From Pseudomonadota bacterium (GTDB taxonomy: Bacteria; Pseudomonadota; Gammaproteobacteria; Burkholderiales; SG8-39): a stretch of DNA of 64,000 bases. Below, piece by piece: positions 2,532-48,960 of the stretch. Every line of letters begins with the position of its first letter. The stretch's first letter is position 1. The stretch is from NCBI GenBank assembly GCA_025356665.1, contig JANXRV010000062.1, positions 1,866 through 65,865 on the forward strand, given 5' to 3'. The notes below the pieces were generated by a model, which was not told where the DNA came from, made no database searches, and worked only from the letters and a program-made list of their open reading frames with translations. A program made the position numbers and the translations under genes.

Positions 2532-4994
<2,463 letters not shown>

Positions 4995-5050
4995 GGTCGG
5001 TATCCTAACTAACGGAAATAAATGCGGAAAAGCTTTAAATTATACCACGG

Positions 5051-8484: not shown

Positions 8485-9618
8485 CTATTTGAAATCAGAC
8501 GCCATCTGCTCCTGGATGCCGATTTCAGCGCTGGTCACCACGCAGCGGTCGATGTAATCAACCAGGCGCATCGGCGCACGCAGCCCTTCTTCGAGCAGGC
8601 GCCGGTTATCGAAAACAAAGTTCAACTCGGCAAATGCGCCGTACAGCTTGAGGGCGCGAACCAGCAGCCTGCGGTTGATGATGCCCAGTTGTTCCTCGCA
8701 CTGCCCGGCCAGGCTGGCCAGATCATCGACGGCGATTTTTCGGTAATTCTTGCCCATGGGCGAAAGGCCGGCCGCACGCGCGTAGGCGACGTCGATTTCA
8801 TCAAAACGGCAGGAGTCAAGCGACGAAGAAACGTGATACAGGTTGTGCTTCAACTGCGCCTTGAAGGTCAGTTCGATTAGAACCGAGGCGCAATAGTCAA
8901 CCGGAACCACATCAATGCATTCGGCCAGATCGCAGGTGAACTGCTTTAGCGCGTGCGCCATGCGAAAGACCCAAAAAATACTTCCCGAGGGTCCGCAGCC
9001 CAGGACGGTGTGCCCGACAATGATGGAGGGCCTGACCACCAACAAGGGCAGGGTGGGCAGTTCCTTGCGCAGCTTTTCTTCCGCCTCGAGCTTGGAGGCG
9101 GTATAGGGAACGAGGTGCTCCTCGATGTCTGCCGGCGAACCCCAGACTTCCTGAACCGGGCTGATGACATTGGGACCGCAGGACATCGCGGTGCCGACCT
9201 GGACAAAGCGATCCAGTTTCGCGCGCCTGTGAACCAGCGCCGCAAAGGCGAAGGTGCCATCGACATTGACCGGCCAGATCTTCGGGCTGTTGGAAAAGGT
9301 CGCCAGCGCGGCGCAATTGATGACGTGTGTGACCGTTGTCAGGCGGGTGCTTTGTTCCAGTTCATCGAGATACTCAAAGTCGCCGCAAATGACCTGGCCG
9401 GGACTGAGCGTGTTGATCTTTTGCTCGTCAATGTTGAATCTGGCCAGATTGGCCTGGACGCGCATCAGGCCCTCGATCTTGTTCTTGGCACGTACGAAAA
9501 AACTCATGTTTGGCGCGTGTTCGGCACCGAGCAATTCGGCAACGATGGCACCGCCCAGAAAACCGGTGGCCCCGGTAATCAAGAGATGCTTGCTTGCCAT
9601 TGGGGGCTTGATCATCAA
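8485..9618 (-). CDS. SDR-family NAD-binding protein (thioester/fatty-acyl reductase-like)
   Basis: 377 aa with Rossmann motif LLITGATGFLGG and YTASKLEAE (YxxxK). The start is uncertain; ATG at 9600 (MASKHLL) is an alternative. Confidence 0.7.
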   Translation of the reverse strand: MMIKPPMASKHLLITGATGFLGGAIVAELLGAEHAPNMSFFVRAKNKIEGLMRVQANLARFNIDEQKINTLSPGQVICGDFEYLDELEQSTRLTTVTHVINCAALATFSNSPKIWPVNVDGTFAFAALVHRRAKLDRFVQVGTAMSCGPNVISPVQEVWGSPADIEEHLVPYTASKLEAEEKLRKELPTLPLLVVRPSIIVGHTVLGCGPSGSIFWVFRMAHALKQFTCDLAECIDVVPVDYCASVLIELTFKAQLKHNLYHVSSSLDSCRFDEIDVAYARAAGLSPMGKNYRKIAVDDLASLAGQCEEQLGIINRRLLVRALKLYGAFAELNFVFDNRRLLEEGLRAPMRLVDYIDRCVVTSAEIGIQEQMASDFK

Positions 9619-9833
9619 TTCGTCCAGAAAAGTGCTTCCGATCGCATTGTATTCCTTATGACAGACGCGGGATGGTTTCTAGGCATTGCCCACGTTAGCG
9701 GCCTTGAATTGCGGCTCGCGGTGCCCATTAGCTCGACCTTGCAATTGAAAAAAGACCACTCGAACTCACCGGATAAGCCTTTCGCCAAAAAGAGCGCCAT
9801 CGTCCCGCCGCGATGATCGAGCCGCTACGAGCC

Positions 9834-12800
9834 TTAACCCGTAGACTCTTCATCGGCGAAGAACTTATAAAGTATCGGCAACAGCAGCAAGGTAAACGCT
9901 GTCGCGGACACGATGCCCCCGACAATAACCACCGCAAACGGGCGCTGCGTTTCCGATCCGATGCCGTGAGAAAGTGCCGCAGGGAGAAGTCCCAGTCCCG
10001 CCATCAGGGCCGTCATCAGAATGGGCCGCAATCGCATCACCGCGCCATCCATGATGCTTTCCCTGAGCGGGCGGCCGTTGCGCACGAATTCCATGATCTG
10101 CTCGACCATGATGACGCCGTTTTGCACTGAAATACCGGCAACGGCAATAAAGCCCACTGCGGCCGAGACAGACAGATGCAAGCCCGCCAACCCCAAGCCG
10201 GCGATGCCGCCTATCAATGTGAAAGGCACCATTAGCAACACCAGTAAAGCGCGCCTTACGGACCGGAAGGCCCAGAACAGCAGGCAAAAGATGATCAACA
10301 TTGAGAGCGGCACCACAACCTTCAATCGCGCCATGGCGCGCTGCTGGTTCTCAAACTGCCCTCCCCATGTGATCTGGTACCCGGGCGGCAGCTTGATCTG
10401 GTCTGCGACGCGCTTTTGCGCCTCAGCAACAAAGCTGCCCTGATCGCGCCCGACCAGATTGACCTTTACCGCGACGTTGCGTCCGCCCGCCTCGCGGGCG
10501 ATGCGCGTCGCACCTTGCCGAACCTCGATTTTCGCAATGTCCCCCAGTGCGATCGTGCTTGGCGCCCCGGTCTGGCCGCCGGCAGCGCCGGTTCCAGGCA
10601 AGGCCACCTGCAAATCGGACACATCGTCAACCGAGTCGCGATACCGCGCCTGCAGTCTGGCCGTCACATCAAACCGCCGGTCGCCGTCATAAAACGCATT
10701 GGCCGGATTCCCGGCAAGCGCCGTTTGTATGACGTTGTTGACGTCACTCACGTTAACCCCGTATCGCGCGGTCTTTTCGCGATCCACCGTAATGGTCAGC
10801 TCGCTCTGCCCGCCTATCTTGAAAGCCGCAACGTCCGTTGCACCGCGCACGTTGCTGAGGATGCTGACGATCTGCTCGCTTTTGCTCTCCAGAATATCCA
10901 GATCGGGACCGAAGAGCTTTACGACGATTTCCCCCTTCGCGCCCGAGAGCGCCTCCTCGACGTTGTCCTGGATTACCTGCGAAAAATTCGTCGGCACGCC
11001 CGGCAGGCGGCGGATTTTGGCGGACATGTCGGTCACCAGCGCATCCTTGCTCTCGAAACGCCATTCCCCCCTGGGTTTGAGATCGGCAAGCACCTCCAGA
11101 TTGTTCGGGCCCTTGGGGTCGGTGCCGTCATCCGGGCGACCCACCTGCGTCACCACCATGTTCACTTCGGGGTAGCTTCTGAGTATGGCCCGGACTTCTC
11201 GTTCCACTTCCTTTGTCTTGTCCAATCCGGTTGCCGGCGGCAGCGTAATCGTCAGCCAGATGTTGCCCTCGTCCAGTTTGGGGAGGAATTCGCTGCCCAG
11301 CAGGGGCGCGAAGCCAAGTGAAATGACCAGCAGCGCGACCGAGGCGGCAATGACCTTGCGGCTGTGGCGACCCGCCCATTCAAGCATGCCGCGGTAGCGA
11401 TTTTGCAGCGACACCATCCAGTTCGAGTGCGTCTCCGCCATGTCCTCGCGCCGCATCGCATAGGCGAGCAGGGTGGGAACCAGCGTCAAGGTCAGCAAAA
11501 TCGCCCCGAGCAGGGCAAACGCCAGCGTATAGGTCACCGGCGTGAATATCTTGCCCTCGACCCGCTGGAAGGTGAAGATCGGCAAAAAGGCGGTGATGAT
11601 GATCGCCTTGGAAAAAAGTATCGGATGGGCAAGCGTTGCGGCGGTATGCCGTAATTCATGCAATCGCCAGCCGACACCCGAATGCTTTGGATTGGGATCG
11701 GTTTGGGCAATGGCGAGGCGGACCATAAGCGCCTCGACCAGAACCACTGCGCTGTCAACGATGATGCCAAAATCCACGGCACCGAGTGAGATCAGGTTTG
11801 CCGAAACGCCGCGCGCATCCATGAGGATGAACGCAAACAGCAGCGACAGCGGTATCACCGAGGCGACGATCAGCGCCGCACGCCAGTTGCGCAGGAACAG
11901 CAGCAGGATGGCGATGACCAGGGCGGCGCCCACCGCAAGGTTCTCGATCACCGTCGCAACGGTGTGGCTCACAAGATCGCTGCGCTCGTAGGTCGGCCGT
12001 ATCCTGACACCGGCCGGAAGCTTCGCGTTGACGTCATTGACCCTCGCCCGCAACCGTTCCACCACCTTGGACGCGTTCTGCCCCTTGGTCATGACGACGA
12101 TGCCTTCGATTACATCGTCCCTATCGTTGTAGGCGACGATGCCAGAACGCGGCTTCTCGCCAACCTTGACTTCGGCGAGGTCGCTCACACGCACCGGCTT
12201 GCCACCCTGAGAGGAGACCACGGTCCGTCCGATGTCCGAAACATCGCGAAACAGGCCGATGCCGCGAATCACCAGCGCTTCATCACCGCGGCGCATGAGT
12301 CCGCCACCCACGTTGGCACTGTTATTGGCAAGCGCCGCACTGACCTGGTCCAGCGTGAGGCTGTAACGCTTTAGCGCGTAGGGGTTGACGAGCGCCTGGT
12401 ACTCCTTGATGGTTCCGCCAAAGCTGACCACATCCGCTATACCGGGGACAATGCGCAACGCCGGCTTGATGGTCCAATCCTGCAAGGCGCGAATCTCGGA
12501 GAGGGGCATGCCCTCAGGAGCGTCCAGCACATAACGGTATATCTCGCCCACTGCAGTCGAGAGCGGTCCGAGCGACGGCTGCACGCCGGCCGGCAGGATC
12601 ACCGTACCCAGTTTTTCCAGAACCTGTTGCCGGGCGAAATAATCGTCCGTGCCCTCAGCAAAGGTCAGCGTGACAACGGACAGACCCGTAATGGAGACAG
12701 AGCGCACCTGTGACTGGCGCGGTACACCGCTCATCTCACGTTCGATGGGCAGGGTCACGGTACGCTCGACCTCTTCGGGCGCCAGCCCGGGCAACTGCGT

Positions 12801-21578: not shown

Positions 21579-22217
21579 CTAGAAAAGACGCCTGGTCGCG
21601 CCCGGGATCACGCCCGGGGTCACGTCCTGGGTCACGTCCTGGGTGACGCCCTGAATGACCCCTTCGTGCGCCAGCAGGCGGCGCTTGACCTCGATCAGGT
21701 AGCCACCGCCGCTGTGCGCAAAGCCGCCCAGGCCCGTCGCCGCAACAACGCGGTGGCACGGAATGACCAGCGGGAAATAATTGCTGCCACAGGCCTGTCC
21801 GACGGCGCGTGCCGCCGAACCCAGGCTGCGCGCCATGCGCCCGTAGCTCAGCGTCTGCCCGCCGGGTACGGCGGATATGGCGGCCCAGACACGGCGCTGA
21901 AAATCGGTGCCGACGGTTTTCAGCGGCAGGCGAAATCTGAATTCCGGATCGTCGGCGTATTTTTCGATTTGCGCGCAAGCCCGCTCGGCAAGCCTGTTCA
22001 GCGGCGGCAACGCACCCATGGACAAAGGCAGGAACATGATCTCGGCCAGCACATCGCCCTCGGTGCGCACACCGACCAGGGCAAACGGCGTGGGCAGCCG
22101 CGCCTGAAATGAACCGTCGGCACGGGGCTTTATGCGGCGCGGCACGATGGTCGGGCTGCCCTCGGCAGCACTGGTGGGGCCTGGACGCACAGAACGCACG
22201 AAAACCCCGTTACTCAC
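21579..22217 (-). CDS. ogt: Methylated-DNA--protein-cysteine methyltransferase
   Basis: Active site IPCHRVV preceded by TDFQRRVWAAISAVPGGQTLSYG. The GTG start overlaps the stop of the upstream gene, and the true start may be internal. The C-terminal tail is repeat-derived. Confidence 0.85.
   Translation of the reverse strand: MSNGVFVRSVRPGPTSAAEGSPTIVPRRIKPRADGSFQARLPTPFALVGVRTEGDVLAEIMFLPLSMGALPPLNRLAERACAQIEKYADDPEFRFRLPLKTVGTDFQRRVWAAISAVPGGQTLSYGRMARSLGSAARAVGQACGSNYFPLVIPCHRVVAATGLGGFAHSGGGYLIEVKRRLLAHEGVIQGVTQDVTQDVTPGVIPGATRRLF
21602..21661. repeat. Five-unit 12-bp tandem repeat inside the 3' end of ogt
   Basis: CCGGGATCACGC CCGGGGTCACGT CCTGGGTCACGT CCTGGGTGACGC CCTGAATGACCC. It encodes GVIQGVTQDVTQDVTPGVIPG. 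Confidence 0.85.
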
Positions 22218-23221
22218 GTGCCGGCGAGTTCGCGCAACTTATGCAGCAAGGCATCGGGCACATCGACCCCCTGCGCCATCGCCAGGCGCTGTGCGTCAAA
22301 ACGCCGGCCGCCTGGCAGACGCACGCCCTCTTCAGACAACATCATCGCGATCAGCGTCTCTAGCCTTTGGTCGTAGACGGCGCGCCCCGCCGCCGCACCC
22401 GGGTCTATGGCGATAAAACCCTGCCCGAGGCTAGGCCGGTTGCCCTGCTCAACCCAGAACGAATCGTTGTCGCGGCTGATGGCCGCGCCGGTGAGCGCGG
22501 TGCACAGCAGTTCGAACACCAGCGCCAGCATGGCCCCCTTGCTGCCACCCACCGGAAAGAGCGTGCCCGCCTCCAGCACCTCCTGCGGATCGGTGGTCGG
22601 CTTGCCGTGACGGTCGAGCGCCCAGCCCTCCGGAATGCGCTCGCCTTTTTGCGCCGCCAGCATGATGCGGCCGCGCGTCACCGTGGTCATGGACAAGTCA
22701 ACGACCAGCGGATCGGCGCCGGCACGCGGAAAAATCGCCGCCACCGGATTGGTTCCGAGCGTGGCGGCCTGCCCGCCCCACACCGGCATGGCCGCCGGTG
22801 AGTTCGACAGCGCAATGCCGATCTGCCCGGCCGCAACCATCGGCTCGAGCGCCAGCGCCAGCGCGCCGATGTGATGGCCGTTGGTCACGCCAGCGTAGCC
22901 TATGCCAAACTCGCGTGCACGCCGCACCGCCTCGCCTGCAGCCATTGCGCAGCCCTCGTAGCCCAGACCGCCGGCATTATCGATGACGCAGACCGCCTTG
23001 TGATCGGACATGACACGCGGGTGGGCGCTGCCGTCTGCCCGACCGTTTTTGAGCATGCCGCAATAAAACGGCACGCGCGACACGCCGTGCGAGGGCAGCC
23101 CCTGCATGTCGGCGGCCACCAGCGCGCGCGCGCTCGCCTGCGCCATTGCCTGGTGCGCGCCGGCACGGGAGAAGGCTTCGCGGGCGATTTCGGTAAGCGT
23201 GTGTTGGTCTATTTTTGCCAT
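22214..23221 (-). CDS. Ldh_2-family (malate/L-lactate/sulfolactate dehydrogenase-type) oxidoreductase
   Basis: 335 aa. MQGLPSHGVSRVPFY...NGHHIGALA...NPVAAIFP are typical of the type-2 Ldh family. Confidence 0.75.
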   Translation of the reverse strand: MAKIDQHTLTEIAREAFSRAGAHQAMAQASARALVAADMQGLPSHGVSRVPFYCGMLKNGRADGSAHPRVMSDHKAVCVIDNAGGLGYEGCAMAAGEAVRRAREFGIGYAGVTNGHHIGALALALEPMVAAGQIGIALSNSPAAMPVWGGQAATLGTNPVAAIFPRAGADPLVVDLSMTTVTRGRIMLAAQKGERIPEGWALDRHGKPTTDPQEVLEAGTLFPVGGSKGAMLALVFELLCTALTGAAISRDNDSFWVEQGNRPSLGQGFIAIDPGAAAGRAVYDQRLETLIAMMLSEEGVRLPGGRRFDAQRLAMAQGVDVPDALLHKLRELAGT

Positions 23222-24822: not shown

Positions 24823-26847
24823 TCAGGCCGGGGTCGCCGGAATCGCATTTCGCCGCAAATACTGCATGGCCAGTGCCGCAATCACCAGCCCGAATCCAAC
24901 CAGGTCGGCGCTTGCGCTCGGGTACACCAGTGCAAAGCCCGCCACCACCAGCATCACGCGTTCTATGCTCGTTGTTTTCTTTATCGCCCAGCCCTGGAAA
25001 CCGGCGGCGAGCGCGGCAATACCCACCGCGGCGGTCAACGTAACCTCGGCGATAGACCACCAATTGGCCGCGCCCAATGCCTTGGTCGAACCCATTAACA
25101 GCAGGCCCTGTCCACTCGGATCGAGCACAAACATGAAGGGCACGAGAAAAGCCGGAACGGTGTACTTCCAGCACTGCATGGTCGTTTTGTACGGATCACC
25201 GCCGGTGATCGCGGCCGCGGCAAAAGGCGACAGTGCCGTCGGCGGGGAAACTTCGGACAGCACGGCGTAGTAAAAAATGAACATGTGGGCGGCAAAATCG
25301 GGAACGCCCAGCTTGATCAGCGCCGGCGCCGCTATCACCGCGCAGATGATGTAGGACGCGGTCACCGGCACGGCGAGTCCGACTACCCACACGACCAGCG
25401 AGGTAAAAATGGCGGTCAACAGCAGGGAACCGCCGGCGTAGTCGATGACAATGGAACTGAATTTGAGGCCAAGGCCGGTGAGCGTAACCACCCCGACGAT
25501 GATACCGGCGCCGGCGCAGGTCGCGCCAACGTTGAGCATCCCGACCGAACCGCCCTCCAAGGCCTTGATGAAAGGCGACTGAAAGACCAGCTTGCTGATC
25601 GAACCCTTGAGGCTGAAAAGGTCGTAGGAGAACAGTGCGCACTCACGCCGCAGGAAACTGGTGACGAAGGACACCACGGTCGCCCAGAACACCGACAGCA
25701 CCGGCGAGAATCCCCACATCATGAAAACGACGATCGATATCAGCGACAGGAAATGAAACCAGTAGCGCCTGGTGAGATTCCACACCGAATCGGGTTTTGC
25801 GAAAACCGTGTTGCCCATGCCGTATTTACGCGCATCAATCTCGACCATCAGGAACAATGCGAGATAGAACAGGATGGTCGGAATGCAGGCCATCAGCAAC
25901 ACGTCGAGATAGGATATTTTCAGGTACTCGGCGATAAGGAATGCCGCGGCACCCAGCACCGGCGGGGAGATGATGGCGCCCAGGCCGCCGGCCGCAAGCA
26001 AGCCGCCCGCCGCGTTCTTTTCATACCCGACCTTCTCGAGCATGGGCCAGGCCACCGCACCCAGCGTCACCGTCGTCGCCACACCCGAACCGGAGGGGCC
26101 GCCCAGCAGGAAGGAGGCGAGCACCACGGTGCGCCCGGCTCCCGTTGGCTTGCCACCCATGGCGGAGAAGGAAAAATCGATATAAAACTTTCCCGCGCCC
26201 GAGTACTGCAAAAATGCGCCGAATATCGTAAAGAGAATGATCAGCGACGAGGACACATCCACGGCCGAACCGTAAATCCCCTCGAGCGTCATGTACATCT
26301 GCCCGATAAGCCGACCGACCTCGTAGCCCTTGTGCGTCCAGGGCTGCGGCAGGTAGGCGCCGAACAGCGCGTAAAGGACAAAGGCCATGGTTATGGCGGG
26401 CATGATCCAGCCGTTGATGCGGCGCATCGCCTCCATCACCAGGCCGATCAGCATCACGCCAAAGAAAATATCCCAGCCATTGGGCGATGTGTTGCGGTCG
26501 GTAAAGTCATCCCCGCCCATGATCAGGTAGACAACGATGCCGATGGCCATCAAGGAGGCGACACAGTCCCACCACATGATGCGGTGGCGAAAACGGCTGG
26601 AAAGCGGAAACAGCAGAAAGGAAAGGAACAGCACAAAGCCAACGTGCACCGGGCGCAGCGTCTGCGTCGGGACAATGGCGTAGGCGGTGTAGAGGTGAAA
26701 CACCGACATCACCACCGCTGCAAGGGTCAGGAAGGCGGCCAGCCAGCCGGTGAATTTATTGGCGGCGCCCTCCTCCTCCTCGATGAACTCCTCGGCCTTC
26801 TTGAGTTTCTCGCTATCGATCGCCGACTGCACATTCGCGTCGATCAT
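24823..26847 (-). CDS. TRAP transporter fused permease (TAXI-type)
   Basis: I trimmed to ATG 26847 (MIDANVQSAIDSEKLKKAEEFIEEEEGAANKFTGWLAAFLTLAAVVMSVFHLYTAY), a characteristic TAXI-TRAP permease N-terminus. About 674 aa and highly hydrophobic. Confidence 0.88.
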   Translation of the reverse strand: MIDANVQSAIDSEKLKKAEEFIEEEEGAANKFTGWLAAFLTLAAVVMSVFHLYTAYAIVPTQTLRPVHVGFVLFLSFLLFPLSSRFRHRIMWWDCVASLMAIGIVVYLIMGGDDFTDRNTSPNGWDIFFGVMLIGLVMEAMRRINGWIMPAITMAFVLYALFGAYLPQPWTHKGYEVGRLIGQMYMTLEGIYGSAVDVSSSLIILFTIFGAFLQYSGAGKFYIDFSFSAMGGKPTGAGRTVVLASFLLGGPSGSGVATTVTLGAVAWPMLEKVGYEKNAAGGLLAAGGLGAIISPPVLGAAAFLIAEYLKISYLDVLLMACIPTILFYLALFLMVEIDARKYGMGNTVFAKPDSVWNLTRRYWFHFLSLISIVVFMMWGFSPVLSVFWATVVSFVTSFLRRECALFSYDLFSLKGSISKLVFQSPFIKALEGGSVGMLNVGATCAGAGIIVGVVTLTGLGLKFSSIVIDYAGGSLLLTAIFTSLVVWVVGLAVPVTASYIICAVIAAPALIKLGVPDFAAHMFIFYYAVLSEVSPPTALSPFAAAAITGGDPYKTTMQCWKYTVPAFLVPFMFVLDPSGQGLLLMGSTKALGAANWWSIAEVTLTAAVGIAALAAGFQGWAIKKTTSIERVMLVVAGFALVYPSASADLVGFGLVIAALAMQYLRRNAIPATPA

Positions 26848-26892
26848 TGGGTTTTGGTCTGCCACGGCATCCTCCCTTTGCGCCAGCCCAGG

Positions 26893-26928
26893 CGCTGTTT
26901 TGTCCCGTCCCGCTGTTTTGTCCCGTCC
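26893..26928. repeat. 18-bp tandem duplication in the TRAP permease leader
   Basis: CGCTGTTTTGTCCCGTCC x2. Confidence 0.8.
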
Positions 26929-27078
26929 TTGTGAAGCTTGGCTCGGTGAGCCTCGGAACGGGGTGTCCCTGTTTTTTGCTAGTCTAGCAGACCGCCCTGC
27001 CGGTTCCGCTGACAATTCACCGGGATGTTCCCGCTGATGCCTGCGGCGCGACAGCCTCCTCCGGCAACCCCCAAAACT

Positions 27079-27216
27079 CAAGGTTTCAAAGGTTCAAAGA
27101 TTCAAATATTCAAAGGTTCAAAGGTTCAAAGACACCAAGACACCAAGACACCAAGACAGCACACCGCACCCATTGCCTGCCACACAAGGGCCCACACAAG
27201 GGCCCACACAAGGGCC
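27079..27216. repeat. Three consecutive tandem-repeat arrays
   Basis: CAAAGGTT-like 8-mer x6.5 (27079-27132), CACCAAGA x3 (27133-27156) and CACACAAGGGCC x3 (27181-27216). Confidence 0.95.
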
Positions 27217-27220
27217 AAGG

Positions 27221-27249
27221 TTGTCCGAGGCTGGCACGGGGAATATACT
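27221..27249 (+). promoter_or_regulatory. Candidate sigma-70 promoter for the RLP-cupin operon
   Basis: TTGTCC (27221-27226), 17-nt spacer, TATACT (27244-27249), about 29 nt upstream of the RLP ATG. This is a pattern match only. Confidence 0.4.
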
Positions 27250-27277
27250 GCGCCCGCCCCAACCGCTAAGCACCGTC

Positions 27278-28375
27278 ATGGAACGCATTCTCGTCACGTA
27301 CCAGGTTACTGCCCCGGAGACTGCGATCGCCGCACGGGCCGCATCCATTGCGGTCGAACAAAGCATCGAAATGCCGCTGTCGGCGGTGCGCGAGCAACGC
27401 ATTCTTGATGATTACACCGGACGCGTCGCGTCGATCACGCCGCTTGCCCCCGGGCTGCACCGCGTGCTCATCGCGCTCTCCGCCGGCACGCTCGACGAAG
27501 ATCCGGGCCAGCTGATGAACATGCTCTTTGGCAACACCTCGCTGCAGCCCGACGTTGAACTGGTCGACATCGAACTGGGTGGGTCGGTGGCGGCGAATTT
27601 TCCCGGTCCGCGCTTTGGCATCGAGGGCTTGCGCCGCCTCACCGGCGCGAGCGCACGCGCACTGACCTGTAGCGCCCTGAAACCGCAAGGCAGTTCGCCC
27701 GCGCAACTGGCCGCCATTGCCAGGACGTTCGCCCTGGCGGGCATAGACATCATCAAGGATGATCATGGCATCGCCGATCAGGCTTATGCGCCCTTTGCCG
27801 CGCGCGTGAAGGCCGTGCAGGCCGCCGTCACCGCCGCCAATCGCGAAACCGGCGGGCGCACGCTTTACGCCCCCAGCCTGTCTGGAGGGCCGTCGCGCCT
27901 CGCCGCGCAGGCGGCTGTTCTACGCGACGAGGGCGCCGGCATGGCCCTCGTTGCGCCCATGCTGATCGGCCTGCCGGCTTTTTCCGAACTGGTTGCCACA
28001 CTAGGCGTGCCGGTGCTCGCCCATCCGGCACTGGGCGGCGCGACGCGCATTGCGCCAGCCTTGCTCATCGGCAAACTATTCCGGCTGTTTGGCGCCGATG
28101 CGGTGATCTATCCCAATCACGGTGGGCGCTTCAGTTACACGCCGCAAGAATGCCTGGACATCGCCGGATCGGCGCGCGGCGCGTGGATGCACATACGCCC
28201 CGCGCTCCCCGTTCCCGCAGGGGGCATGACCGTCGAGCGCGCGCCCGAAATGCTAGACTTTTACGGCAATGACAGCATGCTGCTGATCGGCGGCGGCCTG
28301 CTCGCCGCGGGCGATGCGTTGCTCGAGCGTACCCGCGAGTTCGTCAATACAGTGGCCCAAGGTCAAGGTATATGA
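27278..28375 (+). CDS. RuBisCO-like protein (form IV large-subunit homologue, not a carboxylase)
   Basis: I trimmed to ATG 27278 (MERILVTYQV). RuBisCO large-chain motifs are present: FPGPRFGIEGLRRL, LKPQG (for IKPKLG), DIIKDDHG (for KDDE), NHGGRF, PVPAGG, LLIGGGLL. Confidence 0.85.
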   Translation: MERILVTYQVTAPETAIAARAASIAVEQSIEMPLSAVREQRILDDYTGRVASITPLAPGLHRVLIALSAGTLDEDPGQLMNMLFGNTSLQPDVELVDIELGGSVAANFPGPRFGIEGLRRLTGASARALTCSALKPQGSSPAQLAAIARTFALAGIDIIKDDHGIADQAYAPFAARVKAVQAAVTAANRETGGRTLYAPSLSGGPSRLAAQAAVLRDEGAGMALVAPMLIGLPAFSELVATLGVPVLAHPALGGATRIAPALLIGKLFRLFGADAVIYPNHGGRFSYTPQECLDIAGSARGAWMHIRPALPVPAGGMTVERAPEMLDFYGNDSMLLIGGGLLAAGDALLERTREFVNTVAQGQGI

Positions 28376-28881
28376 GCATCAAATCATCTGTCGCAAGCGT
28401 AACAGCAGGCAAGCTGAAGCCGGAAAACACAACAGCACACCGCCCGAACGCCGGACCGGGCCTCTGGACCGGCGTTGAACCGCATCATTACAAACAGGAA
28501 GGCAGCGCGCCGTTTCGCGCTGTCAGCCGGCGAGTACTGTTTGCCGATCCGCAACTCGCCGCTCAATTACGCTACTTCGAGGTGCAAGCGGGCGGATACA
28601 CCACACTGGAACGCCATCAGCACATGCACGCCGTGATGGTGCTGCACGGCGGCGGCAGGGCCTTGGTGGGGGAAGAGCTTTTCGAGCTTGCCCAACATGA
28701 CCTCATCACGGTGCCCCCCCTGACATGGCACCAATTCCGCGCGCGCAAAGACGCGCCGCTGGGTTTTCTGTGCATGGTCAACACAGACCGCGACCGCCCG
28801 CAGTTGCCGGGTCCGGAAGAACTCGACGCCATGCTGTCCAATCCGAAACTGGCCGCTTTTTTGCAAGAACAGTCCGCATAA
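28372..28881 (+). CDS. Cupin-domain protein
   Basis: 169 aa with cupin metal motif LERHQHMHAVMVLHG...WHQF. Its ATG overlaps the RLP stop (ATGA), which implies translational coupling. Confidence 0.75.
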   Translation: MSIKSSVASVTAGKLKPENTTAHRPNAGPGLWTGVEPHHYKQEGSAPFRAVSRRVLFADPQLAAQLRYFEVQAGGYTTLERHQHMHAVMVLHGGGRALVGEELFELAQHDLITVPPLTWHQFRARKDAPLGFLCMVNTDRDRPQLPGPEELDAMLSNPKLAAFLQEQSA

Positions 28882-28888
28882 CAGGCGC

Positions 28889-28915
28889 AAAAAAACCCGC
28901 TTAAGGCGGGTTTTT
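28889..28915. terminator. Bidirectional intrinsic terminator between the convergent cupin and TAXI binding-protein genes
   Basis: AAAAAAACCCGC TTAAG GCGGGTTTTT: a stem flanked by an A-run and a T-run. Confidence 0.75.
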
Positions 28916-28967
28916 CCGGTGCTGGGAAGGTTTCACCCACCCTGTCAGCGGCCGCCAGCCAGCAGCC

Positions 28968-29924
28968 TCAATTGAGCTTGACGCCCTTTTCTGCAAAGTA
29001 CTTCAATGCACCCGGATGGAAGGGAATGGGCGAGGCGGCGTATTTCTGGCTTTCGAGCCTGATGTTTTCCGCCTCCTTGTGAACCGCAATCACATCGGCG
29101 CGCTTGTCAAAGATGGCCTTGACGATGTTGTATGCGGTCTTGTCGTCCATCGATTCATGCACGAGAAGAATATTCATCACCGTCGCCTGCTTGTTGTCGG
29201 TGTCCATGCCCTTGTAGACCGCCTTCGCTATGCTGTCCTCAACGTACAGGTCGCCGTATTTTTTGTTCATCGCCGCAACCACTTCGGAATGATCGATCAT
29301 CTTCAGCTTGGTGCCCGGCGTGTTCGCAAGATCGGTCACCGCAGCAGTGGGCAGTCCACCGACCCAGAAAAAAGCGTCGATCTTGCCATCCTTGATGGCA
29401 TTGACCGACTCGGCGACGCCCAGGCGTTCGCGCTTCAGGTCGCGGTCCTTGTCCAGGCCGGCCGCCTCAATGATGCGAAAAGCCATCACTTCGGTCGCGC
29501 TGCCGGGCGAACCGGTCGAAACACGCTTGCCCTTGAGGTCGGACATCTTGTTCACGCCGCGGCCGTCGATGGAAACGACATGCATGCGGTTAGGGTACAA
29601 AATCATCAGGGTCCTGAGCGCAACTTTGCCGCCCTTGAACTTGTCCTCTCCGCGGTAGGCATCAAGGGCGGCATCGGTCATTGAAAATCCGACGTAGGAT
29701 TTACCGCTGCCAATGAGCTTGAGATTGTCAACCGAACCACCGGTCACTTCAGCGGTGGCCTGCATGCCCGGAACGACCTTGGACAGCACGGCGGCGATAC
29801 CCCCACCCATCGGATAGTAGACACCGCCGGTACCGCCGGTCGCGATCGAAATATTTTGCGCCGTGGCGAGTGCCGCAAACGACATCGCCGCCAGCGCCAG
29901 ACCTGCGCGCAAAAACTGTTTCAT
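28968..29924 (-). CDS. TAXI-family TRAP transporter solute-binding protein
   Basis: I trimmed to ATG 29924 (MKQFLRAGLALAAMSFAALATAQNISIATGGTGGVYYPMGGGIA), the hallmark TAXI N-terminus. GGAGG lies upstream. Confidence 0.88.
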   Translation of the reverse strand: MKQFLRAGLALAAMSFAALATAQNISIATGGTGGVYYPMGGGIAAVLSKVVPGMQATAEVTGGSVDNLKLIGSGKSYVGFSMTDAALDAYRGEDKFKGGKVALRTLMILYPNRMHVVSIDGRGVNKMSDLKGKRVSTGSPGSATEVMAFRIIEAAGLDKDRDLKRERLGVAESVNAIKDGKIDAFFWVGGLPTAAVTDLANTPGTKLKMIDHSEVVAAMNKKYGDLYVEDSIAKAVYKGMDTDNKQATVMNILLVHESMDDKTAYNIVKAIFDKRADVIAVHKEAENIRLESQKYAASPIPFHPGALKYFAEKGVKLN

Positions 29925-30078: not shown

Positions 30079-30501
30079 TTACTTCGCGAACAAGCGGCCT
30101 ATGTCCTTGAATGCCTTGAATTCAATCGCATTGCCGCACGGATCAAGAAAAAACATCGTAGCCTGCTCACCGACCTCGCCCTTGAAACGAATTTGCGGCT
30201 CGATGATAAATTGGGTGCCGGCGCGAATGAGCTTTTCCGACAAGGCCTCCCACTCGCCCATCGACAACACCAGGCCGAAATGCCGCACCGGCACGTTCTC
30301 GCCATCGACCGCACTGGTATTGCGATGCCCGGCCTCCTCGGGCGACAGGTGGGCCACGATCTGGTGTCCGTAGAAATCAAAATCAACCCAGTCCGGGGCG
30401 CTGCGCCCTTCGGGGCAACCGAGCAATTCGCCGTAAAACGCACGCGCCTTTTGCAGGCTGGTGACCGGGAAGGCAAGGTGAAAAGGATGGGCGACAGACA
30501 T
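30079..30501 (-). CDS. VOC-family (glyoxalase/bleomycin-resistance/dioxygenase fold) protein
   Basis: MSVAHPFHLAFPVTSLQKARAFYGELLGC...HFGLVL...DPCGNAIEFK. An alternative TTG start is at 30525. Confidence 0.75.
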   Translation of the reverse strand: MSVAHPFHLAFPVTSLQKARAFYGELLGCPEGRSAPDWVDFDFYGHQIVAHLSPEEAGHRNTSAVDGENVPVRHFGLVLSMGEWEALSEKLIRAGTQFIIEPQIRFKGEVGEQATMFFLDPCGNAIEFKAFKDIGRLFAK

Positions 30502-30692
30502 GATGGCAACCTGCGTAATGAACAAAGAAAGCTGATTATCGCGGATTTTCTATTGCCAAGGACAGGGCGCGCGCGGTCTTCCGCCCTCAGCGTGCGTCGT
30601 CCCCGGCCAAGCCCCTGCGACCCTGCTAAGATTGCATCATCAATCGCAGTAGGGCGCCAGGGCATTAAAACATTGGGTCTTCTGCAAAGTGA

Positions 30693-30932
30693 GTGGGGCA
30701 TTTTGACGAATGGGTGCGCCTGGTCGAGGGCATTAGCGATGTGCAGACCATACACGCAACCGCCCTGCGGCTCAAAGACATCGACTACAGCATCCATTTT
30801 CACGTCTGGGACTTCGACAGTTTTCTTTACTTCGTTGATCTGGTGCGCGACCAGAACCCGGGGCTTGAATTCGACTGGTCCCACATCGAACTCAACCAGC
30901 ACGAAATCATTTCCATCTTCACCAAACGCTGA
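30693..30932 (+). pseudogene. Possible C-terminal remnant of a SAM-dependent methyltransferase-like gene
   Basis: 79-aa ORF beginning at GTG directly after an in-frame stop. The HFHVWDFDSFLYFV motif resembles the C-terminal part of some class I methyltransferases. Local GC (about 52%) is below the window average. Weak evidence. Confidence 0.25.
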
Positions 30933-30993: not shown

Positions 30994-32163
30994 TCAGGCG
31001 CTCTCGTAAAGCCGCGTCAGCACGAATTCGCGATGTCCCAGCGCCTCGGCCGCGGTGAGCCGGCCGTTGGCCGTGCGGAACATGCAATCGAGCAACTTGT
31101 CGCCGGCATCATCGGGCGACATCTCGCGGCGCAGCAGGCCCGACACATCGACGTCGACGTGTTCCGACATGGTGCGAACGGTGCGCGGATTGGCGCAGAT
31201 CTTGATCACCGGCAGGATCGGGTTGCCGATCACGTTGCCCTGCCCGGTGGGAAAGAGATGCACCACATAGCCGGAGGCCGCACACAGCGTGACCATCTCC
31301 GCCGCGGCCGAAGACGAGTCCATGAACCACAGCCCCGGACCGGTCGGCTCCTCGGCCTTGTCGAGCACGCCGTCGATGAGGCATTTGCGCCCGATCTTCT
31401 GGATGTTGCCCAGCGCCTTTTCCTCGATCGTGGTCAAGCCGCCAAGGATGTTGCCCTTGGTCGGCTGCGAGTCCGACAGGTCGCTGGTCTTGTGGCGGTT
31501 GATGACATCCTGGTAGCGGTCAAACATGAACTGGAATTTTTTGCGCACTTCGTCTGTGCGGCACCGCGCGGCGACAAGGTGCTCACCGCCGGTAAGTTCG
31601 GTTGTCTCGCCAAAGACCAGCGTGGTGCCGTGCGGATAAAGCTTGTCGAAGGCGTTGCCAACGGTGGGATTGGCACCGCAACCCGACGTGGTATCCGACT
31701 CGCCGCATTTGGTGGAAACCCACAGATCCTTGAGCGGACGCGTTTCACGCTGCAGTTCCGAGGCCCATTGCACATACTCCTTGGCCACTTTGGAGGCGCG
31801 TAGGATGGTGTCATGGTCGCCATGCTGCTCGATGCCAAAACCGACCACCGGCTTGCCGGTCTTGGCAATGCCATCGACGATCAGCTTGGTCCAGCCGTCC
31901 TCAATGCCGATCACCACCACCGCCGCCACGTTGGGATTGGAACCGGTGCCGATCAGCGTGCGAAAATGCAGCTCCAGGTCGGCGCCAAACTGCAGCCGGC
32001 CATAGGGATGCGGGATCGCCATCGCGCCCTTGATATTGTGCGCCACCGCCTCGGCAGCGGCATTGGAAAGGTCATCAACCGGCAGGATGATGACGTGGTT
32101 GCGCACGCCGACACGGCCGTTCTCGCGCTTGTAGCCCTGAAAAGTCGCTTTGGAGAGATCCAC
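30994..32163 (-). CDS. UxaA-family (altronate/galactarate dehydratase-like) hydro-lyase, large subunit
   Basis: I trimmed to GTG 32163 ([28 protein letters not shown]...[12 protein letters not shown]...). The long N-terminal extension in the ORF track overlaps the small-subunit gene. Confidence 0.8.
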
Positions 32164-32165
32164 GC

Positions 32166-32447
32166 TTACCACCTCTTGGTTTTGATGTTGTGCACATGGG
32201 CGTGCTCGCCCAGCTTGATGGCCGCGACAGTGCGGCCGATGTCGACACCGTATTTGATCACCGTGTCCTTGTCCTTGAGTTCGCGTATCGCCAGCTTGTG
32301 ACCGATGGGGATGTCGTTGAGCGCCTTGATCTTGAGATCTTTGTTCTGGTCCATGATCCAGCCGGCCAGATCCTGCCCCGCCTTCACCCCCTCGACCACC
32401 ACCACACCGACCGAGTCGTGCTCGTCGTGCACCACGAAATGAATCAT
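32166..32447 (-). CDS. UxaA-family hydro-lyase small subunit (SAF domain)
   Basis: I trimmed to ATG 32447 ([27 protein letters not shown]...[22 protein letters not shown]). It ends 2 nt before the large-subunit start. Confidence 0.8.
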
Positions 32448-34170: not shown

Positions 34171-34448
34171 GAGCTGAGATGATTCTTCATGAACTGAGAT
34201 GATTCTAGCGCCAATTGGCGGCGATGATTACCGCCGATGTGAGAAAGGGGGACGTGCCGCTAACGACACACCCAACGCGGGGCAGACACCGCGATACCGC
34301 AGGTGGGGACGGCATAAAAATCGTACGACCCTGCTGCACACTCCGGTAAAATGTGGCGCAGTCCAAGATTCAGTCTCAGTCTCAGTTTAAGTCTTTGTGC
34401 CGACGGCCCCGCCCGGACGCAAATAAAAACCATTCAGGAGCCAACTCC

Positions 34449-35471
34449 ATGCTGTTTCCCACCACGCTCGTCGGCAGCTATCCGCAACCGGAATGGCTGA
34501 TCGATCGCGCTAAACTCGCCGGACGTTTTCCGCCGCGTACGCGCGCCAAGGAGTTGTGGCGCATCCCCGAGGCCTACCTCGAGGAAGCGCAAAGAGATGC
34601 GACACTGATCGCCATTCGCGCCCAGGAAGAGGCCGGATTGGACATCCTTACAGACGGTGAGATCCGGCGCGAAAGTTATTCCAACCGCTTTGCCACCGCG
34701 CTCTCAGGCATTGACATCGACAATCCGGGGACCGGCCTGGACCGCTCCGGCCACCCCAACCCGGTGCCGCGCATCACCGGCAAGATCAAGCGCCTGCGCC
34801 CGGTGGAGGTCGAGGATATGAAGTTCTTGCGCGCCAACACCACGCGAATGGTCAAGATCACCGTGCCCGGCCCGTTCACCATGAGCCAACAGGCACAAAA
34901 CGATTTCTACAAGACCGAAGCCGAGGCGGCGATGGATTACGCCCAGGCCGTGAACGAGGAAATTCGCGACCTCTTCGCCGCCGGCGCCGACATCGTGCAA
35001 ATCGACGAGCCGTATATGCAGGCTCGTCCGGAAAAAGCGCGCGAGTACGGCCTTGCCGCGCTCAATCGCGCGCTCGAGGGCATCACCGGTACCACCGCCG
35101 TGCACATCTGCTTCGGCTACGCGGCGGTGATCCACGCCCGGCCGGAGGGCTATTCCTTCCTGCCCGAATTTGCCAACTGCACGTGCAAACAGGTGTCGAT
35201 CGAAACGGCGCAATCCAATCTCGATTGTTCGGTGCTGACCAAACTGGCGGGCAAGAAGGTCATGGTCGGCTGTATCGACCTGTTGGACATGAGCATAGAA
35301 ACGCCGCAAATCGTCGTCGCGCGCATCAAGCGCGCGCTACCTTTCATCGCCAAGGAAGACGTCATTCTCGCCCCCGACTGCGGCATGAAATACCTGCCGC
35401 GCGATGTCGCCGACGGCAAGATGCGCGCGATGGTGGCAGCTGCAAAAATACTGCGCGCCGAGTACGCCTGA
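34449..35471 (+). CDS. Cobalamin-independent methionine synthase family protein, catalytic-domain-only (core-MetE type)
   Basis: I trimmed to ATG 34449 (MLFPTTLVGSYPQPEWL). MetE zinc-ligand motifs are present: HICFGY, SIETAQS, PDCGMKY. At 340 aa, the N-terminal MetE barrel is absent. Confidence 0.8.
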   Translation: MLFPTTLVGSYPQPEWLIDRAKLAGRFPPRTRAKELWRIPEAYLEEAQRDATLIAIRAQEEAGLDILTDGEIRRESYSNRFATALSGIDIDNPGTGLDRSGHPNPVPRITGKIKRLRPVEVEDMKFLRANTTRMVKITVPGPFTMSQQAQNDFYKTEAEAAMDYAQAVNEEIRDLFAAGADIVQIDEPYMQARPEKAREYGLAALNRALEGITGTTAVHICFGYAAVIHARPEGYSFLPEFANCTCKQVSIETAQSNLDCSVLTKLAGKKVMVGCIDLLDMSIETPQIVVARIKRALPFIAKEDVILAPDCGMKYLPRDVADGKMRAMVAAAKILRAEYA

Positions 35472-43432: not shown

Positions 43433-44614
43433 TTATTTTGCCAATCGCACGAACCCGGCTTCAAGATCGGCAATCAGGTCGTCCACATGCTCAAGGCCGG
43501 CGTGAATTCTGAACGCCGGTCCGCTGTAAGGCCATTTTGTCGCATTGCGCGCATCGGCCAGGCTGAAGGGCATGGCGAGGCTCTCAAAACCGCCCCAGGA
43601 CGCACCTATGCCATAGAGCTGCAGGCCATCCATGAACGCGGCGAACGCCTGGTGCGAAACCGGCTTGAGCACCACGCTGAACAATCCCGATGCGCCGCTA
43701 AAGTTGCGCTTCCAGATGGCGTGTCCGGGGTCGCCGGGCAAAGCCGGATGCAACACGCGCTCGACCTCGGGGCGCCGGGCCAGCCACGCGGCGAGCGCCA
43801 GGCCGGTTTCGCCGTGCTGCTTGAGCCGCACCGCCATGGTACGAAGTCCGCGCAGCGCGAGGAACACATCACCGGGTCCTGCGGTCTGACCCAGATCGAC
43901 ATGCGTGTCCTTGAGCGCCTTCCAGGCCTCGCGCGTCGTGGTGACCACGCCGAGCATCGCGTCGGAATGACCGACGATATATTTGGTCGCGGCATGAATC
44001 GACACATCGACACCGTGCTCGAACGGTTTGAAATACAGCGGCGTCGCCCAGGTGTTGTCCATGATCACCGTCGCGCCCTGCTGGTGCACCACCGCCGCGA
44101 TGGCGGGAATATCCTGCATCTCGAAACTGAGCGAACCGGGCGCCTCCACGACAACGACGCTCGTGTTCGAGCGCATCAGCGCGGCAATGCCCGCGCCGAC
44201 CAGCGGATCGTAAAACTCAACCTCGACGCCGAATCGGCGCAAAAACCGCCAGCCCACACGGCGCATCGGACCATAGGCACTGTCGCTGATAAGCACATGA
44301 TCACCGGCCTTGACGTACGCGAGCAGCGCGCAGGAGCAGGCGGCGAGCCCGGAGGGATATAGCATGCTGCGATAGCCGCCCTCCAGATCGGCAACGGCCT
44401 CCTCCAAGGCGGCGAGCGTCGGCGTGCCATGACGGCCGTAATACACGCCCGGTTTGTCAGCGGCGTAATCCTTGTGCTTTTGCTCCCACTCGGCGAGCGT
44501 TGGCGAGAGCACCGTGGAGGCGTGATACACGGGGGTGTTTACGACACCATGCTGGTCCTCAGGGTGACGTCCGGCATGGACGAGCCTGGTTTCTTCTTTT
44601 CCGGATTTGCTCAT
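43433..44614 (-). CDS. metC: Cystathionine beta-lyase (PLP-dependent)
   Basis: I trimmed to ATG 44614 (MSKSGKEETRLVHAGRHPEDQHGVVNTPVYHASTV). The PLP lysine context is SIHAATKYIVGHSD. Confidence 0.85.
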   Translation of the reverse strand: MSKSGKEETRLVHAGRHPEDQHGVVNTPVYHASTVLSPTLAEWEQKHKDYAADKPGVYYGRHGTPTLAALEEAVADLEGGYRSMLYPSGLAACSCALLAYVKAGDHVLISDSAYGPMRRVGWRFLRRFGVEVEFYDPLVGAGIAALMRSNTSVVVVEAPGSLSFEMQDIPAIAAVVHQQGATVIMDNTWATPLYFKPFEHGVDVSIHAATKYIVGHSDAMLGVVTTTREAWKALKDTHVDLGQTAGPGDVFLALRGLRTMAVRLKQHGETGLALAAWLARRPEVERVLHPALPGDPGHAIWKRNFSGASGLFSVVLKPVSHQAFAAFMDGLQLYGIGASWGGFESLAMPFSLADARNATKWPYSGPAFRIHAGLEHVDDLIADLEAGFVRLAK

Positions 44615-44786
44615 GTTCGATGTGCGTGACCGACATGCCCCGCGGGGCGATGAAGCGTATTCTCGCAGAAAGCCGCCTCGCCCAGCACGCGCGCGATACC
44701 TCATGTGCAGGTACCGGGTACCATGAACCGAATACCTTGCACCGGGGCGCGGCGGGGCCAACGCTGAGACACAAAAAAGGAACAGC

Positions 44787-45377
44787 ATGAACGAGCGCAT
44801 ACGCAAGCTGATGAACGACATGAACGCGCTGGAGGGGGAGTTGCGCACCGCGCTGCACGAGCAGGAAGAGCGGATGTTTTTCCAGATCAAGGGCAAGCGC
44901 GTCGAGTTCGAGCGCAATGTGCGCGACGCACACCTGAAGTTGAAGCGCAATTTCTTCCGCTGGGTGCTCACCGACCGGCCGCAGAACCTTCTCACCGCGC
45001 CCTTCATCTATGGACTTATCCTACCGCTAGTCTTTGCAGACCTGTGTGTCACGCTCTACCAGGCGGCGTGTTTTCCGGTCTACGGCATAGGCAGGGTGCG
45101 TCGTGCCGATTACATCGTTTTCGACCGGCAGGAACTGGGCTATTTAAACTGGTTCGAGCGCTTTCACTGCACTTACTGCGCCTACGCCAACGGACTCATC
45201 GCCTATATCGGCGAGATCAGCGCACGCACCGAGCAGTATTTTTGCCCGATCAAGCATGCGCGCAAGGCCCTTGGCACGCATGCCCGGTATGCGCATTTTC
45301 TCGGGTTTGGCGAGGCCCAGAACTACCACGCCAGGCTGGAGGGCTTCCGCGTGGCACTCGGCGAAGAAAAAAATTGA
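44787..45377 (+). CDS. Hypothetical protein (coiled-coil N-terminus, one or two TM segments, Cys-rich C-terminal region)
   Basis: 196 aa with coding-like codon usage. It has a CTYCAYANG...YFCPIKHA motif. I recognise no family. Confidence 0.6.
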   Translation: MNERIRKLMNDMNALEGELRTALHEQEERMFFQIKGKRVEFERNVRDAHLKLKRNFFRWVLTDRPQNLLTAPFIYGLILPLVFADLCVTLYQAACFPVYGIGRVRRADYIVFDRQELGYLNWFERFHCTYCAYANGLIAYIGEISARTEQYFCPIKHARKALGTHARYAHFLGFGEAQNYHARLEGFRVALGEEKN

Positions 45378-48884: not shown

Positions 48885-48960
48885 TGGTGCCGGATGCAGG
48901 AATCGAACCCGCGACCTTCGGTTTACAAAACCGCTGCTCTACCAACTGAGCTAATCCGGC
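48885..48960 (-). tRNA. tRNA-Thr (anticodon UGU)
   Basis: A 76-nt cloverleaf folded by hand: acceptor GCCGGAT/ATCCGGC, D-arm GCTC-AGTTGGTA-GAGC, anticodon loop TTTGTAA, T-arm GCGGG-TTCGATT-CCTGC, encoded CCA. Confidence 0.92.

Follow-up and report, generated by a model that had tools for sequence, protein, structure and literature searches.

A predicted two-gene module of the methylthioadenosine-isoprenoid shunt within the TAXI-TRAP transporter locus of a Burkholderiales bacterium

The window investigated in this study (64,000 nucleotides of an uncultured member of the Burkholderiales, GTDB lineage SG8-39; assembly GCA_025356665.1, contig JANXRV010000062.1, positions 1,866 to 65,865 of the forward strand) harbors a RuBisCO-like protein (RLP) gene and a cupin gene on the plus strand that separate the two minus-strand genes of a TAXI-TRAP transporter. 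Most likely, this gene pair represents a known module of the 5'-methylthioadenosine (MTA)-isoprenoid shunt that has come to occupy the spacer inside the locus of a TAXI-TRAP system which is unrelated to it and widely conserved. The observations comprise the homology of the two proteins, the portability of the gene pair, an empty site in a relative, the conserved promoter and terminator, and the purifying selection acting on the coding regions; the enzyme activities and transcription units are what we infer from them. Gene calls were based on open reading frame (ORF) listing and profile searches (Pfam, NCBIfam) of the window and gave the following order:

24823 to 26865, minus strand: TAXI-TRAP fused DctQM-type permease, 680 residues, GTG start (TIGR02123, PF06808)
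27278 to 28375, plus strand: RLP, DeepYkr type, 365 residues (PF00016)
28372 to 28881, plus strand: cupin, 169 residues (PF07883)
28889 to 28915, both strands: bidirectional intrinsic terminator of the convergent cupin and TAXI genes (A-run, GC stem, T-run)
28968 to 29924, minus strand: TAXI-family TRAP solute-binding protein, 318 residues (TIGR02122, PF16868)

The gene identities and the split, opposite-strand layout are real and were found at essentially the same coordinates as in a preceding sequence-only reading of the window. The exception is the permease start, which had been placed at ATG 26847: GTG 26865 is to be preferred, its start context (GTGGCAGACC) being kept in the related locus L090 and the permeases of relatives being called at 679-682 residues. 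The permease matched TIGR02123 with 535 bits (cut-off 321) and the binding protein TIGR02122 with 286 bits (cut-off 84), with additional matches to PF06808 and PF16868, respectively; the split concerns the gene layout, not the family membership of the two proteins. Adjacency and co-transcription of the TAXI and permease genes are not found here: a terminator and a convergent operon occupy the 2.1 kb that separate the two genes. The ATG of the cupin gene overlaps the RLP stop codon as ATGA, as had been noticed before, and the cupin is predicted to be translationally coupled to the RLP.

The RLP aligned end to end with the protein of PDB entry 3QFW (residues 3-361, 51% identity, 380 bits, E 1.2e-112), whereas solved structures of the other clades gave far lower scores, i.e. 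134 bits for the YkrW protein 2OEK (E 5e-38), 96 bits for Photo RLPs (E approximately 3e-26), 95 bits for form III RuBisCO (E approximately 5e-26) and 72 bits for the NonPhoto-like 3NWR; all NCBIfam equivalogs for RLPs and RuBisCO stayed far under their cut-offs. The motifs LKPQG and KDDHG (the latter with the carbamate lysine) are common to the RLP and 3QFW, with K135-P-Q and K160-D-D-H-G in aligned positions, and are invariant in 16 members of the clade. The short length of 365 residues is typical of the DeepYkr clade, and a homologue with 61% identity to the RLP is named S-methyl-5-thioribulose 1-phosphate isomerase by JGI. The cupin matched 3KGZ (E 3.6e-49, 54% identity) and 3JZV, deposited as "uncharacterized protein Rru_A2000" (E 2.5e-46, 52% identity), and shares with Rru_A2000 the motifs ERHxHxH and WHQFRA. 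Rru_A2000 is the 1-methylthioxylulose-5-phosphate sulfurylase of Rhodospirillum rubrum, and the substrate of this enzyme is made by the DeepYkr RLP Rru_A1998 (PMC4958253); Rhodopseudomonas palustris has rlp1 (RPA2169) next to the cupin gene (RPA2170), and both enzymes have been validated in vivo and in vitro, the orthologues of the two organisms being 53% (RLPs) and 56% (cupins) identical (PMC5893883). With identities of 51-54%, the pair of the window is thus as close to the validated enzymes as these are to each other. The RLP is accordingly predicted to be a 5-methylthioribulose-1-phosphate 1,3-isomerase of the DeepYkr type, and the cupin a 1-methylthioxylulose-5-phosphate methylsulfurylase; isomerases of this type convert methylthioribulose-1-phosphate into both methylthioxylulose-5-phosphate and methylthioribulose-5-phosphate. 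The sequence-only reading, which had rightly named the parallel with the R. rubrum pair, regarded substrate and pathway as open; this assessment has to be given up, as both proteins fall into the characterised DeepYkr RLP/Rru_A2000 cupin group, i.e. the first half of what that reading had itself set down as counter-evidence.

The gene neighborhoods in other genomes were compared on the basis of a scan with the RLP alignment (one genome per species), which resulted in 80 loci with RLPs of 52-65% identity from Burkholderiales, Usitatibacter, Meiothermus, Caldilineaceae, Eremiobacterota-type metagenome-assembled genomes, a metagenome-assembled genome of the Acidobacteriota and Alphaproteobacteria; the neighbors were tested by tblastn with the window proteins within 10 kb of the RLP. 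The cupin gene was located downstream of the RLP gene on the same strand in 72 of these loci, in 69 of them directly (gap of up to approximately 200 nt). By the same tblastn test, TAXI, permease, VOC-fold protein, both UxaA subunits, Ldh_2 and EamA were found in none of the 80 loci within 10 kb. Only MacAB/HlyD efflux genes recurred otherwise, in about ten related loci: genes for a MacB-type ABC protein, an FtsX permease and HlyD directly precede the RLP-cupin pair in L011, L016 and some ten others, which is probably clade synteny rather than an indication of pathway partners. A clustering of the neighbors by naive longest-ORF calling was discarded, since it was confounded by long antisense ORFs in high-GC DNA; it was redone with a codon-position GC score and is still imperfect, so that tblastn provides the robust result. 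The same gene organization had already been noted in Meiothermus and others (PMC4958253). From the conserved pairing in variable surroundings it follows that RLP and cupin constitute a portable two-gene module; a recurring link of RLP, cupin and TAXI, for which the sequence-only reading had proposed to look, does not emerge from these loci.

The transporter, in turn, occurs independently of the pair. TAXI proteins with 80-92% identity were detected in very many Burkholderiales, and orthologues of the TAXI and permease genes (82-87% identity) lie next to each other in the canonical way. In L088 (Ramlibacter sp. XY19), L089 and L091, both genes are co-oriented and overlap by 4 nt or are up to 19 nt apart, just as the sequence-only reading had described the usual arrangement, while the other neighbors of the TAXI-permease pair differ. 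Two of these loci have disrupted permease calls (a truncated fused permease of 518 residues in L089, positions 10978-12534; 498 plus 96 residues in L091, positions 8957-10972, with an intact permease of 671 residues in the same context on a second contig), which probably reflects frameshifts or assembly errors. Beyond the binding-protein gene, the window continues with the following genes, whose adjacency to the locus was correctly recognized from the sequence and agrees with the profile and ORF evidence:

30079 to 30501, minus strand: VOC (glyoxalase-fold) protein, 140 residues (PF00903)
30994 to 32163, minus strand: split UxaA-type enzyme, large subunit, 389 residues (adjoins the locus)
32166 to 32447, minus strand: split UxaA-type enzyme, small subunit, 93 residues (adjoins the locus)

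Locus L090 displays the same synteny as the window (methyltransferase, UxaA small and large subunit, YeiH-family gene, VOC, TAXI, permease), shares 87-90% identity with it in proteins and flanks, and lacks RLP and cupin; it is as close to the carriers of the split layout as these are to one another. In its TAXI-permease spacer of 244 nt, the TAXI gene is followed by a terminator (A-run/hairpin/T-run), and the motif GTCTGCTAGACT is present as well; the spacer has nothing else in common with the cassette, and remnants of the cassette were not found in it. Because L090 carries both elements, the cassette lies exactly between a terminator and a motif upstream of the permease that were both there before it; as the L090 spacer is free of cassette remnants, both a gain in the carriers and a later loss in L090 are compatible with this site. 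A search for terminal inverted repeats and target-site duplications around the cassette gave short, chance-level matches only, and no transposon-like ends. The VOC gene stands beside the TAXI gene in the carriers and in L090 and was found at none of the 80 other RLP loci; it is a syntenic neighbor of the TAXI gene outside the cassette.

These data bear on the proposal of a new pathway in which RLP and cupin would act on an imported substrate together with the VOC protein, the split UxaA-type enzyme and the TAXI-TRAP transporter. The contiguity of the genes, the persistence of the layout in about five lineages with RLPs of 74-83% identity, and the divergent control region shared by permease and RLP are in line with this proposal, which we nevertheless consider highly improbable: none of the 80 other loci combines the pair with these neighbors, the TAXI-permease pair (80-92% identical) occurs widely in loci that lack the cassette and has varied neighbors there, L090 possesses the VOC, TAXI, permease and UxaA genes without RLP and cupin, two carriers, L001 and L086, have no UxaA genes beside the cluster, and the TRAP transporters characterised so far mainly carry organic acids (PMC11574862), in contrast to the intracellular sugar phosphate that would be the substrate of the RLP. 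In consequence, the idea of a TRAP system dedicated to import for the RLP-cupin pair cannot be maintained. Equally little credence is given to its variant of a sulfur-salvage island, in which the divergent control region would couple the permease to the shunt and the substrate of the TAXI-TRAP would be an organosulfur carboxylate (a methylthio-acid may be a candidate, or sulfolactate, which the neighboring SuyAB-like lyase would use; the position of the cassette may be adaptive); any functional link between transporter and shunt, for which the retained position is the sole argument, seems very doubtful to us.

The split UxaA-type enzyme (389 plus 93 residues) has counterparts with 88-100% identity in many Burkholderiales; its homologues are named (2R)-sulfolactate sulfo-lyase subunit beta by JGI, whereas the NCBI name is UxaA family hydrolase. 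The best NCBIfam match of an Ldh_2 protein at 22214-23221 is L-sulfolactate dehydrogenase, albeit with 183 bits against a cut-off of 500; together, these annotations hint at organosulfonate metabolism. Between the VOC and UxaA genes, approximately 546 bp are missing from the window in comparison with the conspecific L093 (approximately 97% nucleotide identity), with the junction at 30666-30698, and a remnant ORF (30669-30929, plus strand) encodes the C-terminal 87 residues of a 219-residue methyltransferase.

The split layout was found in the window and the conspecific L092-L097 (approximately 97% nucleotide identity), in L001, in L002-L005, and in L086 and L087, a further carrier contig being available as gene calls without DNA; it thereby recurs in about five lineages of one narrow Burkholderiales lineage, and uniqueness to this strain, which the sequence-only reading had named as counter-evidence, is disproved. 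Among the carriers, the RLPs are 74-83% and the cupins 65-79% identical, whereas the flanks are 87-96% identical with the exception of the divergent L001 permease. The latter (L001 positions 4779-6806) shares only 71-75% identity with its counterparts in L090 and the other carriers, although the TAXI (90-92%) and VOC proteins (91-92%) of L001 are as conserved as elsewhere, which suggests that this permease is evolving faster or was replaced. The synonymous divergence (dS) of the cassette, 0.8-1.3, is similar to that of the flanks, 0.78-0.92, and suggests one old insertion that was inherited together with the flanks. An assembly artefact or a recent strain-specific rearrangement, for which only the rarity of split TAXI-TRAP pairs could be adduced, is therefore hardly conceivable: the same order and orientation are present in more than ten independent assemblies (NCBI, ENA, JGI, Logan) with RLP identities of 74-100%, and the dS of the cassette matches that of the flanks.

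The ratio of nonsynonymous to synonymous divergence (dN/dS) is 0.12-0.20 for the RLP and 0.14-0.30 for the cupin, compared with 0.06-0.09 for the transporter, and indicates purifying selection on the cassette that is weaker than on the transporter. The faster evolution of the cassette relative to its flanks, the dN/dS of up to 0.30 in the cupin, the identity of merely 51-54% to characterised enzymes and the functional diversity of RLP clades (PMC5893883) might be taken to suggest that the pair, while belonging to the DeepYkr/cupin group, acts on a related substrate, e.g. another 5-substituted ribulose-1-phosphate, in a role other than MTA salvage. We regard this as unlikely, given that the two validated pairs differ from each other to the same extent (53% and 56%; PMC5893883), that the signature motifs are conserved in both RLP and cupin, and that the coupling of the two genes is kept in most of the 80 other genomes.

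The spacer between the divergent permease and RLP genes contains the following elements (TRF, the tandem repeat search):

26893 to 26928, no strand: 18-nt unit CGCTGTTTTGTCCCGTCC, duplicated in tandem (x 2), in the leader of the permease (TRF)
26980 to 26992, minus strand: candidate promoter/operator motif of the permease, GTCTGCTAGACTA on the permease strand (conservation)
27078 to 27132, no strand: array of 8 nt x 6.4, AAGGTTCA (TRF)
27129 to 27158, no strand: array of 8 nt x 3.8, AAGACACC (TRF)
27180 to 27216, no strand: array of 12 nt x 3.1, CCACACAAGGGC (TRF)
27221 to 27249, plus strand: sigma-70-type promoter TTGTCC-17-TATACT, predicted for RLP-cupin (consensus scan)

The plausible sigma-70 promoter that had been read into this spacer is indeed present: its -35 and -10 hexamers are nearly invariant in four aligned carrier lineages and in all strains, and this conservation supports a dedicated promoter of RLP and cupin. 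On the permease side, the core TCTAGCAGAC of the candidate motif (plus strand) is likewise nearly invariant in the four aligned carrier lineages, L001 having TTTAGCAGAC, and the motif is carried by all conspecific strains and by the empty-site spacer of L090. There, the motif GTCTGCTAGACT(A) occupies positions 5547-5559, contains GTCT-N3-AGAC and lies approximately 110 nt upstream of the permease start. The motif predates the cassette and may act as an operator or as a promoter of unusual type; a reading of TAGACT as the -10 box of the permease was rejected, as no -35 element at canonical spacing was found, and the motif stays a candidate promoter/operator.

At the other end of the cassette, the bidirectional terminator has folding energies of -21 kcal/mol on one strand and -19.9 kcal/mol on the other (z approximately -3.4), and its hairpin is kept in relatives with compensatory changes in the stem. 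The earlier claim of such a terminator is correct insofar as the structure is present and conserved; its supposed role of isolating the binding-protein gene does not stand, since the same hairpin follows the TAXI gene already in the empty site of L090 and was therefore not created for that purpose. Similarly, the tandem-repeat arrays of the spacer are real, although TRF finds four of them instead of three. L001, L002 and L086 lack the three arrays at 27078-27216 or have them in degenerate form, and copy numbers vary even among conspecific strains: AAGGTTCA is present in approximately six copies in the window versus two in the conspecific strains, AAGACACC in approximately four versus about one degenerate copy, and CCACACAAGGGC in three versus one, while the 18-mer has two copies in the window and in L094 and one in L092, L093 and L095. 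These variable-number repeats have the appearance of expansions by slippage within junction DNA that is not essential, rather than of conserved regulatory sites; the last of them, the 12-mer array, stops 4 nt short of the RLP promoter's -35 hexamer. Rfam revealed no riboswitch (including SAM riboswitches) or other RNA family upstream of the RLP or permease genes (whole window; the spacer permissively); its only match in the window was a tRNA at 48888-48960 (minus strand).

With respect to the remaining steps of the shunt, no mtnA, mtnP, mtnK or mtnN was found among the scanned genes of the window (Pfam/NCBIfam; several short ORFs and a 597-residue ORF at 5051-6844 lay outside the scan), in agreement with the sequence-only reading for mtnA, mtnK and mtnP, nor were mtnA and mtnP among the recurrent neighbor families annotated around the pair in the 80 other genomes. 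The lack of mtnA and mtnP near the pair is uninformative, because both model organisms have these genes at a distance as well: in R. palustris, mtnP/mtnA are RPA4821/RPA4820, far from RPA2169/2170 (PMC5893883), and in R. rubrum Rru_A0361/Rru_A0360, far from Rru_A1998/A2000 (PMC4958253). Of the pyridoxal phosphate-dependent enzymes of cysteine and methionine metabolism, the window encodes a single one, a cystathionine beta-lyase (TIGR01324, 502 bits, cut-off 366), whose gene is located at 43433-45007 (minus strand; the ORF as listed is over-extended at its N-terminus). A short MetE-like methionine synthase is encoded at 34353-35471 (plus strand; PF01717, but PRK09121 with 255 bits below the cut-off of 392) and is syntenic in relatives, too. 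Glutathione has been proposed as the reductant of the cupin reaction (PMC5893883); a glutathione-disulfide reductase gene is present at 946-2319 (minus strand; TIGR01424, 662 bits), 25 kb away from the pair and ubiquitous. The window further comprises rpoD (2532-4994, minus strand) as a housekeeping gene.

According to the favored interpretation, the plus-strand pair would be a self-contained two-gene cassette belonging to the MTA-isoprenoid shunt for methionine (sulfur) salvage: the RLP would convert 5-methylthioribulose-1-phosphate to 1-methylthioxylulose-5-phosphate, and the cupin would remove the methylthio group by means of a thiol reductant, so that 1-deoxyxylulose-5-phosphate would become available for isoprenoids and methanethiol for methionine. 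The upstream enzymes (MtnP or MtnN/MtnK, plus MtnA) would be expected elsewhere in the genome, as in both characterised organisms. The cassette would be transcribed from its own conserved sigma-70 promoter at 27221-27249, and its operon would end at the hairpin shared with the convergent TAXI gene; it would have entered the TAXI-permease spacer in an ancestor of this Burkholderiales lineage and then have been inherited with its flanks. No part in the pathway would fall to the TAXI-TRAP transporter, to the VOC protein or to the split UxaA-type enzyme, which would be neighbors by position. Several points weigh against this interpretation: MtnP or MtnN/MtnK, MtnA and O-acetylhomoserine sulfhydrylase are all missing from the scanned genes of the 64-kb window; the functions of RLP and cupin were transferred from sequence at approximately 51-54% identity; 3QFW, which carries a generic molecule name, is presumed to be RLP1 of R. 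palustris; divergence is greater in the cassette proteins than in the flanks (74-83% and 65-79% versus 87-96% identity); and the retention of the layout in about five diverged lineages raises the possibility of a positional benefit, e.g. a divergent co-regulation with the permease.

The locus opens no new RLP function. It would rather extend the shunt module to an uncultured Burkholderiales lineage and identify it as a cassette that is portable between varied contexts across several phyla, and it offers a clean empty-site example of a cassette lodged in a transporter locus without destroying it. For annotation, the lesson is that the gene neighborhood in this genome would suggest a false link between the RLP and a TRAP importer.

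Among related systems, OiaX (3-oxo-isoapionate-4-phosphate decarboxylase) belongs to the same RuBisCO superfamily and gave a partial match of 83 bits versus a cut-off of 700; the locus contains none of the kinase and dehydrogenase partners of apionate-type RLPs, as had been observed before. The YkrW/MtnW enolases of Bacillus and Geobacillus (2,3-diketo-5-methylthiopentyl-1-phosphate enolase) are members of the superfamily that likewise act in methionine salvage, and PRK09549 is the best NCBIfam match of the RLP; however, the scores (179 bits versus the cut-off of 409 for PRK09549, 131 versus 514 for TIGR03332) are insufficient, and MtnW proteins, unlike the RLP of the window, comprise approximately 410 residues and are not paired with this cupin. 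In canonical TAXI-TRAP systems, the binding-protein gene is directly followed by that of the fused permease; both components of the window pass the NCBIfam cut-offs, but are separated by the 2.1-kb gap with a terminator, a convergent operon and a divergent promoter region. The closest parallels are Rru_A1998/Rru_A2000 of R. rubrum and rlp1/cupin of R. palustris, in which a short DeepYkr RLP is likewise followed on the same strand by a cupin of approximately 160-170 residues, and mtnP and mtnA are, as at the pair of the window, not adjacent; different from both are the host, a non-phototrophic-looking Burkholderiales lineage, and the location of the cassette inside a TAXI-TRAP locus, on the opposite strand.

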